Shown here: one piece after another, positions 8,756 to 58,631 of the stretch
Layout: every line of letters starts with the position of its first letter
Numbering within the stretch: the stretch's first letter is position 1
Translations under genes and position numbers: made by a program
NCBI RefSeq assembly: GCF_006345805.1
Contig: NC_043005.1
Span: 107,446,001-107,510,000 of the forward strand
Source of the DNA: Octopus sinensis
Lineage: Eukaryota
DNA length: 64,000 nucleotides
Direction of reading: 5' to 3'
Notes under the pieces: model-generated
What the model was told of the DNA's origin: nothing
The model's database searches: none
Seen by the model: only the letters and a program-made list of their open reading frames with translations

Positions 8756-8801
8756 TCACGTTAAATACATATTATCAACTTAAGAAAAATTCACTAGACA
8801 C

Positions 8802-9175
8802 GGGGGTGGCAGTGTGGTAAGTAGTTTGCTTACCAACCACATGATTCCGTGTTCAGTCCCACTGCATGGCACATTGGGCAAGTGTCTTCTACTATAGCCT
8901 TGTGAGTGGATTTGGTAGACAGAAACTGAGAGAAGTCCGTCGTATTTGTATGTATATATGTATGTGTGTATGGCTGTGTGTCTTTGTTTGTCTCCCTAGC
9001 ATTGCTTGACAAGCGATGCTGGTGTGTTTATGTCCCCGACATTTAGCGGTTCGGCAAAAGGGACCGATAGAATAAGTACTGGGCTTACAAAGAATAAGTC
9101 CCGGGGTCGATTTGCTCGACTAAAGGCGGTGCTCCAGCATGGCTGCAGTCAAATGACAAAAACAAGTAAAAGAGA
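8802..9175 (+). mobile_element. SINE family B (tRNA-like head, internal microsatellite)
   Basis: GTGGCAGTGTGGTAAGTAG..GTTCAGTCCCACTGC head and ...GCGGTTCGGCAAAAG..GGGGTCGATTTGCTCGACTAAAGGCGGTGCTCCAGCATGG..AAACAAGTAAAAGAG tail. Homologous to 26700-27110 and 46648-47066. Confidence 0.9.
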
Positions 9176-21905: not shown

Positions 21906-23380
21906 AAGTATGTGTGTATGTATAAGGTGAAATTGAGCGATTTCACTGCTATATTCTGTAAATTCTGTTTGACTAACATTTATGCCTCATTATAACTTCT
22001 CCATTTGTAAAGTATGGAATAATTCGTTCAACTTTCTTTTACCAGCATATTATTGTTATTATTGTTGCCATCGCTCAGCCCCAGGTCATCCTAGGTTTTC
22101 CGGACGTGACATGTCCCGGATTTTGTCTTTAGAGCTTTGCAAATTTTACTTATTTCCGTGTTCTTCCGTTTTGGGAGACTTGCTATTATTTGAAGGTGAT
22201 CATACAACTGAGAAGTATCTCTCTGTCACAGGTAAAGATATTTTCAAAGTTAAATGTATTTACTCCTAGTTGGAACTTTAAAATCTATGCTATTCCATTC
22301 TCTTCCGTTTGATTGTCATAACATTCTGAAGGCCGTACAGTGTTGTGGCAGGAGTCTAGAGCTCAGCATAAACCTTCTTACATGAAATAATCGATTTGTA
22401 ATCTTTACCATATCTAAAAATGAGAGGATAAGCATTACGGTATAGATACCTTCATAGCTTTGAGTCGGGGGCTTAAGAAGAGTGCTATCCCTTGCAAAAT
22501 ACTAGGGCTTTCATCGCTTCAATTTTTGTATTTGTCGTCCACAAGATAATGTTCTGTCACTGTAGCCTCCTAAGATGCATGCACACAAGTTCTGTGTACT
22601 AATAGCATTTTCAAAATATTGCAGGTTTTGCCGTCTGACGTAATTGCCAGACGGCAAAACTTTTCGTTACACCCCTAAGACCTCTAAGACTGAATATTCC
22701 GTCTGAGTGGACAGCCAATTGATTCTCAACGCTTGTCTGAAGCACATAAACTCCCTCAGTTGCTTGCTGGCAGCTGTTTTTAGTACCCATACTCATAGTA
22801 CTTATACTCATAAAGCACTACTAGAAGATTTAGCTTCTTGTCAAGGGCACACATTTCTTCCTATTTTTTAACCTCAGAGCTGATCCTAGCTACATACTAA
22901 TTAAGTACGATTATAATACATCGATGTTATTCAGTTTGCAGCGACCAGAAGATGTTTCTGAAACGGTAATTTAATCACTGTTCTCAGGAATGCTCCTGGG
23001 TATTAATTACCGAGCAATGTTTGTGAATATATAAAATATGCTATAAGTGCATTTCCTTTTCATGAGTGATTGACTGTCATCATCGTTCTCATCGTCTTCG
23101 TTGTTGTTATATTCGTCAATTTCATTGACTAAGATCATTCCCCCCAAAACATGTTATTAATTATGAGCTGATACTTTAAAAACAAAAACAAACGGATGCC
23201 CCCTACGTTATACATCTATCTAAAATAAAATAAAAACTACAATGACGATGATAAGCTTTGGATCGCACATCCTTAAGATACTAATGGCCAACCAAATTTC
23301 TGTTAGTGTCTATTACAAATTCTGCAGTTTAATAAAATCTATACCTTTCATGTACGCACACAATATATATATATATAATA

Positions 23381-23638
23381 TATCTGTAAAAGTAATATGT
23401 GACAATTATTCGGTAGCCCTGATAATACTCCGAGTTTCGGATGCCGAGGTGGAAATCCACGCCGCCATCCCTTCGGTTATCTGGTCATCGGAAAAATGTT
23501 ATGAAAAATGGCCGTTATACACAGGGAAATTATCATGGCTACCGAATAATTGTCACATATTTATTTTATAGATAAATTCCTCTATTTATATAAATTCGAG
23601 GTCTCTTTCATTCTTTTGTTGTCTTACCATTTTTATCA
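23381..23638. mobile_element. Fold-back module 1 of the chain (46-bp arms, hammerhead-like motif)
   Basis: Arms 23381-23426 and 23529-23574. Minus strand 23481-23421 reads GATAA-CCGAAG-GGATG...CATCC-GAAAC-TCGGA-GTA-TTATC (5-bp stem I; core lacks A9). (TA)n on both sides. Confidence 0.7.
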
Positions 23639-23650
23639 ATATATATATAT

Positions 23651-24270
23651 CGCAAAGTAAGGAATGCTACTTTTTTTAGCCCCAAGAAACATCATCTCCA
23701 GCTGGCTATACGACACACTGTGTCCTTATATTTTCGAACAGGACTTTAGCAGTGCATCTGTGCCGAGGAAGGGAAATAACCAAGAAACTACGGTCCACAG
23801 ATATTTGTTTCTTTATCACCCACAAGGAGCTAAACATAGAGGGGGCAAACAAGGACAGACAAACGGATTAAGTCGATTACATCGACCCCAGTGCGTAACT
23901 GGTACTTAATTTATCGACCCCGAAAGGATGAAAGGCAAAGTCGACCTCGGCGGAATTTGAACTCAGAACGTAACAGCAGACGAAATACGGCTACGCATTT
24001 CGCCCGGCGTGCTAACGGTTCTGCCAGCTCGCCGCCTTAGTCCACAGATATTGCTTTGTACTGAGTGTGGATGCTGAACTACCGTGTTCAAAAATATAAG
24101 GATACAGATAGTGTGTCGTATAGCCAGCTGGAGACGATGTTTCCTGGGGCGAAATAACAGTAACATTCGTCCTAACCGGGTCTTCCATATTTTGTTGGCA
24201 AATAATCTTTACCTTAGAGGACTATTACTGAATGTCGTTGAGAGATATAGAAATAATAATGCTTATAAAT
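23651..24270. mobile_element. Fold-back module 2 of the chain (~80-bp arms), interrupted by a SINE
   Basis: Arms 23662-23740 and 24085-24168, then a tail ending CGTTGAGAGATATAGAAATAATAATG before (TA)n. The same tail end recurs at ~25054-25080. Confidence 0.7.
23806..24039 (-). mobile_element. SINE family A, full-length, 13-bp TSD
   Basis: GTCCACAGATATT at 23793-23805 and 24040-24052. Confidence 0.92.
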
Positions 24271-24354
24271 ATTTATATATATATATATATATGTACGTAT
24301 GTATGTAATATATATATATAATATAATATATATATATATATATATGATATATAT

Positions 24355-24381
<27 letters not shown>

Positions 24382-24385
<4 letters not shown>

Positions 24386-24935
24386 AGCGAGAAAGAAACA
24401 ACAAGAATGGATAGGATTTTAGTACAATCTTTCATACAAGGACAGGCTTTATTAAATGTTGCAAAAATTACAGCATATAAACGTGTCCCGTACTCATCAG
24501 CTAAATACATGTGAGTTCTCTAGACATCCTAGTGGTTGAGGCTATACTCATGAAGTAATGTAGATAATTAAGTAACATAAACAGATTTCCAAAGTTCATT
24601 AAAGTTCTTTAAAGATGATGTACAGTCTTATCACAGAATTTTAAAAATTACTTCATGAGTATAGCCTCAAGCACTAGGATGTCTAGAGAACTCACATGTA
24701 TTTTAGCTGATGAGTACGGGACACGTTTATATGCTGTAATTTTTGCAACATTTAATAAAACCTGTCCTTGTATGAAACGATTGTACTAAAAACCTATCCA
24801 TTCTTGTTGCTTCTTTCTCGCTTATAATCACCCCACATTACTGTATTGTTAAAACAGTATAGTTTTTTTTTTGGTGCATCTAAGTTCCGTACCATATTCA
24901 AGTAAATTTATTTAAATTAACTTGAATCTTTATTG
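24382..24935. mobile_element. Fold-back module 3 of the chain (~178-bp arms with two hammerhead motifs)
   Basis: Arms 24382-24559 and 24647-24826 are nearly identical in inverted orientation, with an 87-bp spacer and a ~110-bp tail. (TA)n on both sides. Confidence 0.85.
24701..24791 (+). ncRNA. Type I hammerhead ribozyme, canonical core
   Basis: TTTTAG-CTGATGA-GTACGGGACA...TGTCCTTGTAT-GAAAC-GATT-GTA-CTAAAA. 6-bp stem I and extended stem II; ACGATTGT is self-complementary with G-U pairs. Predicted cut after A24785. The mirror copy on the minus strand at 24417-24505 lacks one C. Confidence 0.8.
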
Positions 24936-25154
24936 CTTTATATATATATATATATATATATTTATACATATAAATGTACGTATGTATGTATGCATATATA
25001 AATATATATATGTATATATATGTATGTATGTATGTATATATGTATGTATCTCTCGTTGAGAGGTATAGAAATAATAATGTTTTATATATATATATATGTG
25101 TGTGTGAGTGTGTGTATACGTGTGTGAGTGTATATGTGTTTGTGTGTGTGCGTG

Positions 25155-26310: not shown

Positions 26311-26699
26311 ACAGAATATAATCGTAGGAAATCTAGCTACATCCTGTCATGGAGCTAAATGCAAGATGTGCTTCTGTTATCACTGACACAAGATGCTGTT
26401 GAGGGTAAAAATGTTGGAAGACAATTTCTCTCTCTTGCTGTTGTATTTGGGGTGAACAGGTATATTAATTTTTGTGTGCATTAATTTTCGTGCGCAGGTA
26501 TATAATCTTAAGTTGCACAATAAGGCAAAACAGTTAATCTGATAAGGCACAACAAGAAAGTGTACATTTCAAGACACAATCGCCCACATAACACATACTC
26601 CTTTGTGAATGACCCGAAAGAGTATACTTCAAACATGAATGTATTAATAGGAACATTCTCATGTTTACACTATTCTCAAAGAAGAAAGATATAGAGTTT

Positions 26700-26915
26700 A
26701 CTCTTTTACTTGTTTCAGTCATTTGACTGCGGCCATGCTGGGGCACCGCCTTTTAGTCGAGCAAATCGACCCCAGGACTTATATTTTTGTAAGGCTAGTA
26801 CTTATTCTATCGGTCTCTTTTGCCGAACCGCTAGGTAACGGGGACGTAAACACACCAGCATCGGTTGTCAAGCGATGTTGGTGGTGGTGTGGGGAACACA
26901 GACACACACACAAAA

Positions 26916-26953
<38 letters not shown>

Positions 26954-27110
26954 GACGGGCTTCTTTCCAGTTTCCGTCTACCGAATCCACTCACAAGGCT
27001 TTGGTCGGCCCGAGGCTATAGTAGAAGACACTTGCCCAAGTTGCCACGCAGTGGGACTGAACCCGGAACCATGTGGTTGGTAAGCAGGTTATTTATCACA
27101 CACCCACGAG
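26700..27110 (-). mobile_element. SINE family B
   Basis: Reverse complement of 8802-9175 with an internal (TA)n/(CA)n tract. Confidence 0.9.
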
Positions 27111-45497: not shown

Positions 45498-46330
45498 CGA
45501 GGTCTGCTCAATAAAAATCCAGACTGTTTGCCATAGTAACGATGCTAAAGCATGTAGAGTGAAGCCGCTTGGCAAAGACCTTACGCTATGATGTGCATAC
45601 GCACTAAGTTTTAACGTTCTAGCTCACTTCCACTGTTTACAGCAATGCTTGGAAGGAAAGTGCGTAGTGTGTGATCGTTGCAGTGCTCATGGCAGAGAAA
45701 GTTGTCATGGCAATACTTACTTAAAGGCCTACACAAAGTTGCAGAAAATTATGGAGAGGAGTATATGAGCCGCACACAAGTGTACGAGTGGTTCAAATAT
45801 TTCCAAGATGGCCGAAAAAGTGTGGATATTGAAAAACTTCCGAGAGACCCGCCATCAGTAGAACTTATAAAAGCGTCGCAGGTGTGCGTGTAGATGTGAA
45901 GGGAGGTCGTCGAATCATCATCCGTGAGTTTTCAGAGGATGTGCAGATTAGTTACAGTTTAGTTCAAGCCATTATCACTGACGATTTCGGTATGAGACGC
46001 ATGTTTGCCAAGTTTGTGCAAAAACTGCCTACAACTGACCAAAATAACACTCGGGTTTCAGTTGTGCAAGATCTCCTTGGTTGTGGCGAGAACGATGAAA
46101 ACTTTCTGAAAACTTTGCGTAGCCCTCTGAGCAGGTATTGCCAAGCTTTTGGCAAAATTTGATGCGTATTATTCTCTCTCTGTCATGAATGCAATGATCA
46201 CACGCTACACACTTTCCTTCCAAGCACTGCGCATGTACGGCGGACTGAAAGTCAATCTTTGCTAAGTGGTTTTACAATGCATGGATTAGCTTCGTTATTA
46301 TGGCAACAGTCCGGAAACGTTTCATAGATT
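45498..46330 (+). mobile_element. mariner-derived element made of two inverted 5' ends
   Basis: TA|CGAGGTCTG start and ~200-bp imperfect inverted arms. Plus strand: YGEEYMSRTQVYEWFKYFQDGRKSV...RRIIIREFSEDVQIS..MRRMFAKFVQKLPTTDQNNTRV. The right arm encodes the transposase start on the minus strand (RIKFCQKLGNTCSEGYAK). Confidence 0.85.
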
Positions 46331-46647
46331 GGAATTTAAATCCTAATTTCTTCAGAAATTTATTGTTTCAACAAAAAATTGAATTTAAATTACTTTTAAT
46401 TTTTACGATTATACATTACAACATGGGCAGTAATTTCTGAGACCGAGTCAGGCGCGTGTCAACGATGTCGTGAGAACATCTGCTACGAATAATATTTTTT
46501 GACACTAGCATGTCGGCCAGACGATGAACGAAAATAAATGAACTGCGACTAGATTCAATAAAAGGAGCTGCAAGTACATACATGAAGTCAGTGTTGGCAG
46601 AAATTAAATCAGCTTGCAAATATACAGCCCGGGTGTCGGAGTCGTCA

Positions 46648-46811
46648 CAGGAGTGGCAGTGTGATAAGTAGCTTACTTACTAACCACATGGTTCCGTGTT
46701 CAGTCTCACTGCGGGGCATCTTGAGTAAGTGACTTCTACCATAGCCTCGGGCCGACCAAAGCCTCGTGTGTGGATTTGGTTGACGGAAACTGAAAGAAGC
46801 CCGTCGTATAA

Positions 46812-46855
<44 letters not shown>

Positions 46856-47066
46856 CTGCTTGTGTGTCTGTTTGTGTGTTTGTCCCCCCAACACCGCTTT
46901 ACAACCGATGCTGGTGTGTTTACGTCCCCGCCAATTAGCGGTTCGGCAAAAGGAACCGATAGAATAAGTACTAGGCTTACAAAGAATAAGTCCTGGGGTC
47001 GATTTGCACGACTAAAGGCCGTGCTCCACCATGGCCACAGTGAAATGACTGAAACAAGTAAGGAGT
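46648..47066 (+). mobile_element. SINE family B
   Basis: Homologous to 8802-9175, with an internal (TA)n(GT)n tract. Confidence 0.9.
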
Positions 47067-47083
47067 AAACAGTAAATATATAT

Positions 47084-55131: not shown

Positions 55132-55824
55132 TTACGCAAACATACATACGTATGCATATATGAGTGAGTTATGTGTGTGCGTTTGCCCAGTCCTTACAAC
55201 ATGCAAGTAGATGATCTTACCAATACCGAATCTTTTATCCAAAAGTGTGACTTGGAAGTATATTAACGAAAGACCAATACAAGTAGAAATGCTCACAAAT
55301 GGTGTCCCTCAACGTAACGGCATCGATACTTAAGAAAAATAAGGAAAATAGAAACGGGCAACCCTTTTCGCTTGATTTTTTCGTGTCATGATTTGTGTTT
55401 AAGTTAACGAAGCACAACGAAAGTAATTTGGGCTTAGTATTTAGTAACTAGTTTTGAACGACCCATAATATTTCAACTGAAAATGATTGTAATCTTGTAC
55501 TACAATACAGGGGAATATAGTCATACTGTGCAACGTTCAAATTTTCGCAGATTAAACTACAATGTACAGATTTCACAACGGGTGTCTTTACAATGGAAAT
55601 GAAACAAAGATCAATTATTGATACCTATCCATTGCTGATTGCCACGCATGCCTTTTCTGAAATTGAAATAATTTTGTAGATAATTGTGGGTATAGGATAA
55701 CATAAAGTACATCCTAACACAAGTCGGGGGAAATGTCAACAGATTTCATAGTGTGCGAAGAGAGTGAAGACACAGACTGTCATTAGGGAAAAATCAAGAG
55801 ATTATATTAAAAGTTTCGAAATAT

Positions 55825-56465
55825 TATTTTCTATTCGAGTACAAGGTCAGAAATTCTGGGGAGGGGCTCTAGTCGATGCCAGTACGCAACTGGTACTTAA
55901 TTTATCGACCCCGAAAGGATGAAAGGCAAAGTCGACCTCGGCGGAATTTGAACTCAGAACGTAAAGGCAGACGAAATTACCTATTTCTTTACTACCCACA
56001 AGGAGCTAAACACAGAGGGGACAAACAAGGACAGACAAACGGATTAAGTCGATTACATCGACCCCAGTGCGTTACTGGTACTTAATTTATTGACCCCGAA
56101 AGGATGAAAGGCAAAGTCGACCTCGGCGGAATTTGAACTCAGAACGTAACGGCAGACGAAATACGGCTACGCATTTCGCCCTGCTTGCTAATGCTTCTGC
56201 CCGCTCGCCGCCATGGAAAGTCTAAAATATCAATATCATAGATGAAACAAGTCGGTGAGCTGGCAGAAACGTCAGCACGCCAAACGAAACGCTTAGCAGT
56301 GAGTTCGTCTCTCTTTACGTTCTGAGTTCAAATTTCGCCGAGGTCGACTTTGCCTTTCATCTTTACAGGGAACGAAAAATTAAGTACTAGTTGCGTACTG
56401 AGGTTGATCTAATCGACTGGACCCTCCCCCCAAAATGTCAGGCCTTGTTCCTAGAGTAGAAAATA
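55825..56465. mobile_element. Cluster of three family A SINEs (minus partial, minus full-length, plus)
   Basis: 55825-55980 (-, older tail, no head), 55982-56212 (-, young tail) and 56252-56465 (+, older tail). Confidence 0.9.
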
Positions 56466-58631
56466 ATATAGATGAAACTTGGTTTGTCAAAACTCAGTAA
56501 AACCAAAATCCAATCTTCTTACGTTCTATGCAATTTATGCATTTCAGAGATGATTTAGTGAAATAAAGAATAAGGAAAACTGAGACAACAATTGTATCAG
56601 TCAACTCTGGAAAAGACGATGTAAACTCTGGAAAAGACGATGTAAATAAACTTGCATATGTAAGGACATGCATATACAAACTTATATGTTACTATTTATT
56701 ATCTACCTCTGCACAAATTTCTCTCGCCTGTCCATACCCATCTTATCCCTACCACAGATTAATCACCATTTTCTTCAGAACTTTGACACTCTGTTTTAAA
56801 AGGCAATGAAAACTCTTTCAAATCTCTCGCTGCCTTCGTAAAAGAAGCCAGAATGTGTTAGATATAATGTTGTCGTAGACAAACTATATCAACAAACTGG
56901 TCACAACTGGACTGTTTTTCATGCTTACTCATAGTTGAGAACAGCAACAGCAATGACACTGTTAACACCTTCGCCAACATCAACACCAAAATCAAAAGGA
57001 ACAGCATCAATTGCGAATAAACCTGAGAGATTAAAATTTATAAGATATTCCGTGAGCGAAAAAGTTTCCATTACATAATCTGAAATTGGTTTGGGAATAA
57101 CAAAATATAGGTCCGTATAGTTTAACTGATTATTAACAAAATGACGCAATTAGAAACAGATTCATCCGAAAAATGTCTGTACTGCAGTGAATAACACAGT
57201 ACAGATAGTTTGATACGGCAATGCAGGTTTAGAGGTTGTTTTTCGTTTGAGAAAAATAAACCTTAATTTTTCCGGTTCTTAGATACGTAATCGCTCGACA
57301 AGTTGCAAATAGCAACGTAACCTTCTTTAAAAGTTTGAAACTAAAAGTATGCACTGGAAAGTATTGTCATTTTACAAACCGCACACATCGGCGGGCTGGA
57401 TGAAATATTTAAAATGATAGTTAGTTCCAGTAATAGAATTTAAAGAAAGCATTGGATTCAGTTGTTAGCTGTCATACACGGCAGCCGAAATCGTCTTTGA
57501 AATTCCTGAGGGAGATCTAGACATGTATCATCCTTTGGATAGAAGGACTTTCAGAACGAAGAACTTGTCAACAATGTAGTTATGTTTCCATGCAACTCAA
57601 TCATTTATCGTCTTCTAAAATGTATCTCAACAATTTCAAATATTTGGAAATACGGAGACAAAGAGAAAGCTATCAGCATCACATGAACCGAGTTGTTTAA
57701 GGGTTAGCCAATTAAAAATGAGTAAATATACTTTGGACCTTGGTTTTATCTAGATCATTTGCTTCACTAATCCCCTAAAAAGCCGCAAGAATTCTGACGG
57801 GTCGACACTGGTCAGATTTCTTTCTGGGAAATTTCAGAAAATAACACAATTATGTATGGCAAATGACTATCGACGCTGACGTCACATGCACATCATACAC
57901 AACTAACAGTAAATCTTGATATCTCTTTCCAAGTCACTGACATACCGATTGAAAGAAACCGTGGGCCGAGTTTGTAATTTCTATTCATTTTGAGCATATA
58001 TAAGTATATATCAACCTCTACACACTTCTAAGGTTGTATAGAAAAAATTTACGATCATCTGCCATAAAACATCTAAAATATAGATATACAGATAGATAAA
58101 CAGCTAGACAGACAGACAGACTGACAGACAAACAGACAGATGGATAGATAGACAGGTATATAGATATATACACACATACAGAGATAGATACGTTGATAGA
58201 CAAAGATAGAGATATATACGTGGAGAGAAAGTGTGTTTCGAAGGCTGATTGGGTGTTGGGAGAGATAATAAAACTGCTAGAATGGAGGATTAGATGGCTA
58301 AAGTGTTCTCTTGATAGAAATACCAAACATACGTTAATAATTCAAACCAATTCGAATTAATCTATCCTATTAACTGATATAAAATAAAAGTACAGTCCTG
58401 TAATTAAATAACAACAATAACAGTTCTCAGAAACCACACTCACAAGGCGTGTAACAAAAATTCATACGTACTGCCCTTTCCACTACTGTCTAAAGGATAA
58501 TATAAAGTTCCTAACAAAATGTCTATATTCAGCTAGTTTCTGTGTTCGGTCAGAGGTCAGGTTTCACCCATATATGATTTGCAGGAAGTATCGAAAGTTA
58601 TCCTGTCTTAATCTGATGTACATTGCAAAGT

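Follow-up and report, generated by a model that had tools for sequence, protein, structure and literature searches.

Penelope-like elements (PLEs) leave insertions of a characteristic form. According to the accessible part of Craig et al. 2021 (PMC8557442), these are truncated at the 5' end, often with an inverted truncated copy at that end, carry a tail at one end, and are biased towards (TA)n. The accessible supplement of the same paper lists hammerheads on both strands of Penelope-13_HM, and among its 24 Hydra-clade consensuses the distance from the hammerhead to the end of the element is 25-45 nt in 10, 80-150 nt in 11 and 25-150 nt in 23 of the 24. In Schistosoma, dual hammerheads occur on opposite strands 100-700 bp apart, and PLE hammerheads with a short palindromic helix III are described as inactive as monomers and weakly active as dimers (Cervera and De la Pena 2014, PMC4209133, in its accessible sections). 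For PAc, a Poseidon element of Anolis, the tail corresponds to the stretch between two internal starts of reverse transcription in an AC-rich stem loop, and the hammerhead is dispensable for insertion in vitro (Frangieh et al. 2024, PMC11167929, in its accessible sections). At the RNA level, the accessible parts of the relevant papers report that Penelope is massively edited in lizard, that octopus has the highest hyper-editing listed and that G is under-represented just before edited sites (Porath et al. 2017, PMC5625713; Albertin et al. 2022, PMC9068888), and that in Drosophila the inverted stretches of Penelope copies are matched by siRNAs (PMC3681739). Dual opposite-strand hammerheads, editing of PLEs and siRNAs from inverted Penelope copies are already in print; what is newly described here is a family of elements, its 112-nt structured tail and a sharp step in depth on its 5' side, a modest novelty.

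We analysed a 64,000-nucleotide stretch of the Octopus sinensis genome (the window), in which the interval 24382-24938 is, with high probability, one insertion of a hammerhead-bearing Penelope-like retroelement in a (TA)n tract. Self-alignment within the window places a left arm of 178 bp at 24382-24559 on the minus strand and a right arm of 180 bp at 24647-24826 on the plus strand, with the inversion junction near 24647. Between them lies a spacer of about 87 bp (24560-24646, minus strand), the single-copy upstream part of the colinear copy. The near-perfect reverse-complement arms of the 178-bp inverted repeat described in the original prediction are real: 174 of 180 alignment columns are identical, the remainder being four mismatches and two gaps, and the whole inverted repeat has a folding energy of -299 kcal/mol (z -37) that none of 100 shuffles equalled in stability. 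The unit had been taken to end at 24826, but contig evidence carries it to near 24938, through a 3' extension, or tail, of 112 bp (24827-24938, plus strand) that is attached to the right arm only and is family sequence by contig depth. No further copy of the element was found within the window by blastn.

The insertion is bordered by (TA)n-rich target tracts at 24268-24381 and 24939-25049, delimited from the sequence. Both tracts hold a 16-nt motif that occurs within the window only at 24292-24307 and 24975-24990, and a second motif occurs exactly twice in the window, at 24235-24264 and 25053-25082; both motif pairs flank the insertion in direct orientation and mirrored order. They may derive from a target duplication that has degenerated, or from an older tandem in the microsatellite. 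The window as a whole is eukaryotic DNA rich in AT and microsatellites, and a 230-bp SINE-like repeat, which we take to be an octopus SINE, recurs in it many times (for example at 23808-24036). That copy is itself surrounded by 84-bp inverted arms (23662-23740 and 24085-24168, 86% alike), a nested insertion in a terminal-inverted-repeat (TIR) element, and another TIR element with 64-bp arms (86% alike), MITE-like and beside (TA)n, lies at 23364-23592. Further away, SINE-like copies stand in tandem and inverted at 55821-56469 with a 370-bp imperfect palindrome at 56047-56418, a 400-bp repeat is present in three copies that are 77-83% alike (8799-9174, 26696-27107 and 46646-47070), and 60-bp inverted arms at 45642-46230 enclose a frame with a weak match to the Mos1 transposase HTH (E 0.004, below the cut-off), a likely mariner remnant.

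Words of the element occur in 20 of 24 listed public runs, from 11 studies and five organism codes, none of the 20 being recorded as RNA, and contigs from four of the 24 (X1, X6, X9 and X13) were aligned to 24550-24945, an interval that leaves most of the left arm outside. As many as 3160 contigs of X1 align to the element, and it is present even in X6 and X13, whose complete runs amount to just 4.3 and 5.1 million letters; together these observations point to a high family copy number, although summed contig depth is not itself a copy number. In all four runs 24550 is joined to 24657 on opposite strands, contigs read the spacer on the minus strand followed by arm sequence, and past 24647 the spacer goes into sequence absent from the window (10, 1, 1 and 2 contigs). 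The loose end at 24647 in X13 is 255 letters long, record 12 of X6 extends to 24936, and among the 22 pieces listed, with 3208 more beyond the list, none bridges 24647. The native order of the family, on the minus strand, is upstream body, spacer, hammerhead arm and 112-nt extension, and the palindrome looks like the product of this insertion, not the amplified unit.

Summed depth in X1 is 1.0-1.45 M on the arm, drops to 0.60-0.85 M across 24830-24927 and falls away beyond 24941, and loose ends run into (TA)n at 24826 (20 contigs) and at 24943 (one contig). This profile and these loose ends together indicate two 3' ends in the family, 35 and 147 nt past stem I of the hammerhead; the left copy in the window ends at the short one and the right copy at the long one. 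Two stem-loops are predicted for 24815-24940 (z -5.0, a stability equalled by 0 of 200 shuffles), and an AC-rich internal loop adjoins the short end. On the 5' side, X1 depth drops roughly 7-fold, from 0.83 M at 24578-24591 to 0.11 M at 24634-24647, mainly within 24605-24620. The step lies about 105 nt upstream of the left hammerhead and may be a discrete 5' edge shared by most copies. The contigs also contain a 9-nt deletion variant, which maps to 24556-24624, and a diverged relative in X1 and X9 (loose ends at 24745, 24747 and 24796) has a shorter loop II, C at position 11.1 and an altered 3' strand of stem I. Two patterns of the element gave no match in metagenome contigs, viral contigs gave none, and the sole match in a prokaryote genome (L001, 22 nt, with no extension) was taken as chance. 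Among the papers listed on hammerheads with Penelope-like elements or octopus none describes the family, those listed on hammerheads, ADAR and retrotransposons do not contain the term 'hammerhead ribozyme', the main text of a 2026 Octopus vulgaris repeat paper uses neither 'hammerhead' nor 'ribozyme', and repeat databases may already catalogue the family.

In the window, then, a colinear copy cut at 24647 and ending 35 nt past its hammerhead stands head-to-head with an inverted copy ending 147 nt past, and the inverted copy, on the right, is the more strongly 5'-truncated of the two. An inverted, 5'-truncated copy joined at the 5' end is what the joint, the loose ends and the pieces show in all four runs, and a (TA)n target, as in the Hydra and Neptune types of PLE, is found in both flanks and at both family ends. 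The tail is one-sided and the family has two ends, but the tail measures 112 bp against a published 30-40. Two further observations count against a PLE: the sharp 5' step in depth at about 24605-24620 is not predicted by random truncation, and Rfam does not recognise the hammerhead motif. The upstream continuation of the family is visible for 30 letters only, and an ORF for reverse transcriptase (RT) and GIY-YIG endonuclease is absent from the window; a Pfam search of 123 window frames (at least 70 aa, entropy-filtered, free of N) returned no PLE domain and three weak matches below the cut-off. A 12-codon minus-strand frame ending at 24609 was considered as the end of such an ORF and rejected, four of its short peptide motifs being absent from the accessible PMC8557442 supplement. 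Because no RT or endonuclease ORF was seen, we infer the PLE parent from the way the insertion behaves, which is that of a PLE.

We propose a model in which the GIY-YIG endonuclease of the element would have cut an AT-rich target, reverse transcription of a single RNA would have been initiated from each target strand at its own internal site, the two sites lying 112 nt apart, and both cDNAs would have stopped early and been joined at their 5'-truncated ends. A common template is indicated by position 24750, where both arms carry A and 97% of X1 depth carries T. Five of the left-arm differences (all except 24760) are absent from the lists of variants at 5% or more in all four runs and are private changes or assembly errors; two of the five are single-base losses at or beside homopolymers. 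With six differences in 180 columns and a single template by the 24750 allele, a recent insertion, as originally suggested, is plausible. The hairpin is, most probably, the kind of fold-back scar that a common Penelope-like element usually leaves.

A less probable, though credible, origin is that the family consists mainly of a short non-coding unit of about 345 bp, retrozyme- or SINE-like, with a fixed 5' boundary near 24610 and mobilised in trans by a PLE, the window copy being a fold-back product. It differs from the PLE reading only in the template RNA, and it would account for the roughly 7-fold drop in X1 depth from 24578-24605 to 24620-24647; the size lies within the range of animal retrozymes in the accessible parts of the sources (PMC7229834; bioRxiv 10.64898/2026.07.22.740005), and the window is without a coding remnant. 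However, the longer form is present in all four runs, the left copy in the window passes the boundary near 24610 and continues to 24647, and no head-to-tail joint from the 3' ends to about 24610 is found among the joints listed for the four runs. The hammerheads of the window form a single inverted pair, and no head-to-tail hammerhead tandem is listed for those runs, whose contigs show presence and not absence. Since the native order is on the minus strand and the palindrome is an apparent insertion product, a MITE or foldback DNA transposon is disfavoured, and we consider it very unlikely that 180-bp terminal inverted repeats with a captured hammerhead inserted at TA. The long near-perfect terminal arms ending in TATA, the TA-rich flanks and the other TIR elements nearby would suit such an element, but in all four runs the spacer runs at 24647 into foreign sequence rather than a second arm, one end is longer than the other by 112 bp that belong to the family, and the junction is bridged by none of the pieces listed; a fixed palindrome with equal ends common to the copies was not found. 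The same missing bridge at 24647 among the contigs listed, together with the five left-arm differences that are unlisted in the family (two of them the homopolymer losses), could be read as an assembly artefact, either a fold-back chimeric read or a mis-join. We give this very little credence: the arms differ at six sites and end at two different natural 3' ends of the family, and a fold-back chimera would mirror the flank, whereas the flanks share motifs in direct orientation.

The insertion carries one hammerhead with an intact core. A descriptor and pair check place a type I hammerhead at 24701-24791 on the plus strand, with six of six pairs in stem I (24701-24706 with 24786-24791), CTGATGA at 24707-24713 and GAAA at 24774-24777 as its core, four of four pairs plus an extension in stem II, two pairs in stem III with a 4-nt loop, and the triplet GUA with a predicted cut at 24785/24786. 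In coordinates, stems, core and triplet this agrees with the motif originally proposed, cut site included. The descriptor matches once on the two strands of the window, against a mean of 0.01 in 100 Markov-resampled windows with stem I of at least four pairs and 0.00 with stem I of six. 'Canonical', the term first applied to it, does not fit, as pair 10.1-11.1 is G-U rather than G-C and stem III is too short for stability alone. An intact hammerhead had been claimed for the left arm as well, but that copy (about 24417-24505, minus strand) has lost C15.2, in a deletion facing 24778, and also a T of stem I, facing 24701; it lacks the pair 15.2-16.2, the descriptor does not match it, and its loop III has a self-duplex energy of 0.0 kcal/mol. 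The Rfam search suggested in the original prediction gave no hammerhead match at the gathering score in the whole window, nor among 21 matches at E up to 10 in 24200-25000, a miss that the long loop II may explain. The MIR-type matches in that interval fall below their gathering scores and were set aside as generic long-hairpin matches, and a tRNA scan returned nothing.

Variation among family copies bears on how the ribozyme might work. The segment 24777-24784 is self-complementary, a wobble palindrome with eight of eight pairs in a self-duplex of -5.8 kcal/mol. The core, stem I, the 4-bp stem II and stem III are free of X1 variants at 5% or above, and 24774-24791 contains only two, both in loop III: T24782C at 65% and G24779A at 17%. 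Each completes the loop III palindrome on the window background, by per-site frequencies that carry no linkage; the two could co-occur and break a pair, and both could arise as CpG transitions. Three other CpG sites in the arm show no such variant, and the A-form palindrome is seen in one loose end of X9. The short stem III and the palindromic loop are kept across copies, and the pattern fits a family ribozyme under constraint, as judged from two sites in linkage-free data. By analogy, it also fits hammerheads that cleave as dimers (PMC4209133, PMC6765202, in their accessible parts). In the parent RNA, cleavage by the hammerhead would accordingly be expected only when two sense copies dimerise by pairing of their palindromic loops III.

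A signature of A-to-I editing was sought in X9, a run that we guess to be RNA, which shares its organism code with X1 and comes from a different individual, with no matched DNA. X9 has 29 listed entries that differ from the window; after seven that exceed 2% in X1 were set aside as DNA variants, 20 of the remaining 22 changes are A>G or T>C (binomial p = 6e-5, null one half), one of them counted against the family allele at 24750. G is upstream of none of the 20 edited-type sites, compared with 19 of 117 arm sites, and U is upstream of 11 of the 19 edited-type sites in the arm (p = 0.012), a neighbour bias that agrees with the ADAR preference given in the accessible part of PMC5625713. Edited-type sites are concentrated in the arm (19 of 117 A/T positions, against 1 of 82 in the extension; p = 2e-4), where 13 are antisense and six sense (p = 0.31). 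The sense sites include 24705, 24716 and 24791 in stems I and II of the hammerhead, and none lies in the core. These statistics come from one low-depth run with sites that are not independent, and the 5% listing threshold may hide minor variants in the spacer. The cluster of A-to-G changes that had been anticipated is thus present at the family level, and the data, from contigs that are not assignable to 24382-24938, support the original proposal of an ADAR substrate for transcripts of the family. A duplex of the kind that this locus would form is probably edited by ADAR, to judge from the family-level signature in one probable RNA run.

The original prediction had gone further, to cleavage that competes with long-hairpin formation as a self-silencing switch. 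In such a reading the transcript would alternate between self-cleavage and the hairpin and be silenced in a regulated way, possibly with release by ADAR editing of the antisense arm. The intact core on the plus arm and an editing signature on both arm strands (13 antisense and six sense sites, with the catalytic core free of them) are in its favour, but we judge such a switch highly unlikely. Because the arms point tail-out, the antisense arm is the earlier one in read-through RNA of either strand. When growing prefixes are folded from 24382 onwards, pairing already covers 53 of 54 right-arm bases at 24700, ahead of stem I, and 141 of 145 at 24791. In the whole element the active fold is about 114 kcal/mol less stable than the ensemble, and even in smaller contexts it is uphill, by 3.6 kcal/mol alone and 7.5 in the right unit. 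Replacing 12, 55 or 66 left-arm adenosines with G leaves it 107, 89 or 87 kcal/mol uphill, which gives no support to release of the ribozyme by editing; the G-for-I proxy overstates the gap, G-U being more stable than I-U, yet the margin is still large. The strand bias of the editing is not significant, and the ribozyme copy on the left, minus-strand arm is broken. A transcript initiated in the spacer would escape the hairpin, yet it would carry one copy that needs a sense partner. With a stem III this short, a second sense copy is expected to be needed, going by the accessible part of PMC4209133, and an inverted copy cannot provide one. We therefore reject the switch, on the antisense-first order, the large energy gap and the want of a sense partner for spacer-started RNA. 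The ribozyme in 24382-24938 is better regarded as a passenger of the insertion: read-through RNA would bury it in a duplex of about 175 bp, and in these folding models the intact hammerhead would be locked inside double-stranded RNA. A more elaborate idea is that ADAR editing of stems I and II, sparing the core, sets the self-cleavage rate of family RNAs, with most copies short and sharing a fixed 5' edge, the 112-nt tail marking two RT starts and fold-back copies serving as the antisense partner. It is speculative and we think it improbable, but if true it would amount to direct editing control on a retroelement ribozyme.

Taken together, we are confident that the feature is real and was in part misdescribed: it is a fold-back insertion whose family is probably a PLE, its one intact hammerhead is of the dimer type and buried, and the editing signature belongs to the family. 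As a single locus, a dead fold-back insertion, it matters little. The family is of wider use. Its two 3' ends, set 112 nt from each other within a stem-loop that folds well, could show whether the two-start model of PLE reverse transcription holds beyond the lizard element, and the natural variants that keep the loop III palindrome could serve to test dimer cleavage. The diverged relative with a shorter loop II would, given assembled copies, be a source of covariation, and the family is a candidate for the origin of the long duplexes that underlie repeat-directed A-to-I editing in cephalopods.

Compared with described systems, the element shares several traits with non-LTR retrozymes, which, in the accessible parts of PMC7229834 and bioRxiv 10.64898/2026.07.22.740005, are likewise short and non-coding, have a type I hammerhead and derive from PLE terminal repeats. 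They are defined by head-to-tail tandems and circular RNA, whereas the copy in the window is inverted and the joints listed include no tandem one. The papers on hyper-edited repeats (PMC5625713, PMC3681739 and PMC9068888), in their accessible parts, do not treat editing of the ribozyme itself. PAc, as far as the accessible text of PMC11167929 describes it, resembles the element in having two 3' ends downstream of the hammerhead, an AT-rich target and an AC-rich stem loop beside an end. Its RT starts are close together, in contrast to the 112 nt that would separate those of the element, and its ORF starts inside the hammerhead; an ORF of that kind was sought here and rejected, as all three plus-strand frames from 24700 are closed. 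The PLE hammerheads in the accessible part of PMC4209133 are also type I, with a short stem III, a palindromic loop and dual motifs on opposite strands. The element departs from them in a G-U where G10.1-C11.1 is highly conserved, in a loop II of about 35 nt within an extended stem, and in host and sequence. Canonical endonuclease-positive PLEs, as presented in the accessible part of PMC8557442, differ in a tail of 30-40 nt as against 112, in the element's very short unit and in the protein, which was not seen here; they match 24382-24938 in the inverted 5'-truncated copy, the tail at one end, the (TA)n target and the hammerhead near the 3' end. Neptune PLEs are also linked to microsatellite targets in that source, and the clade of an element is a matter of its protein, which in the Hydra clade is marked by a DKT motif and an endonuclease without CCHH. 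Identity with the octopus member of the Hydra clade, Hydra-1_Obim, was rejected, since the hammerhead sequence differs and two 12-nt motifs of the element are absent from the accessible supplement of PMC8557442. The Hydra clade as set out there nevertheless offers a close likeness: its PLEs have a (TA)n target, several have U at position 11.1, a member exists in octopus, and the distances of 35 and 147 nt from hammerhead to end in the element match the range of the clade consensuses.
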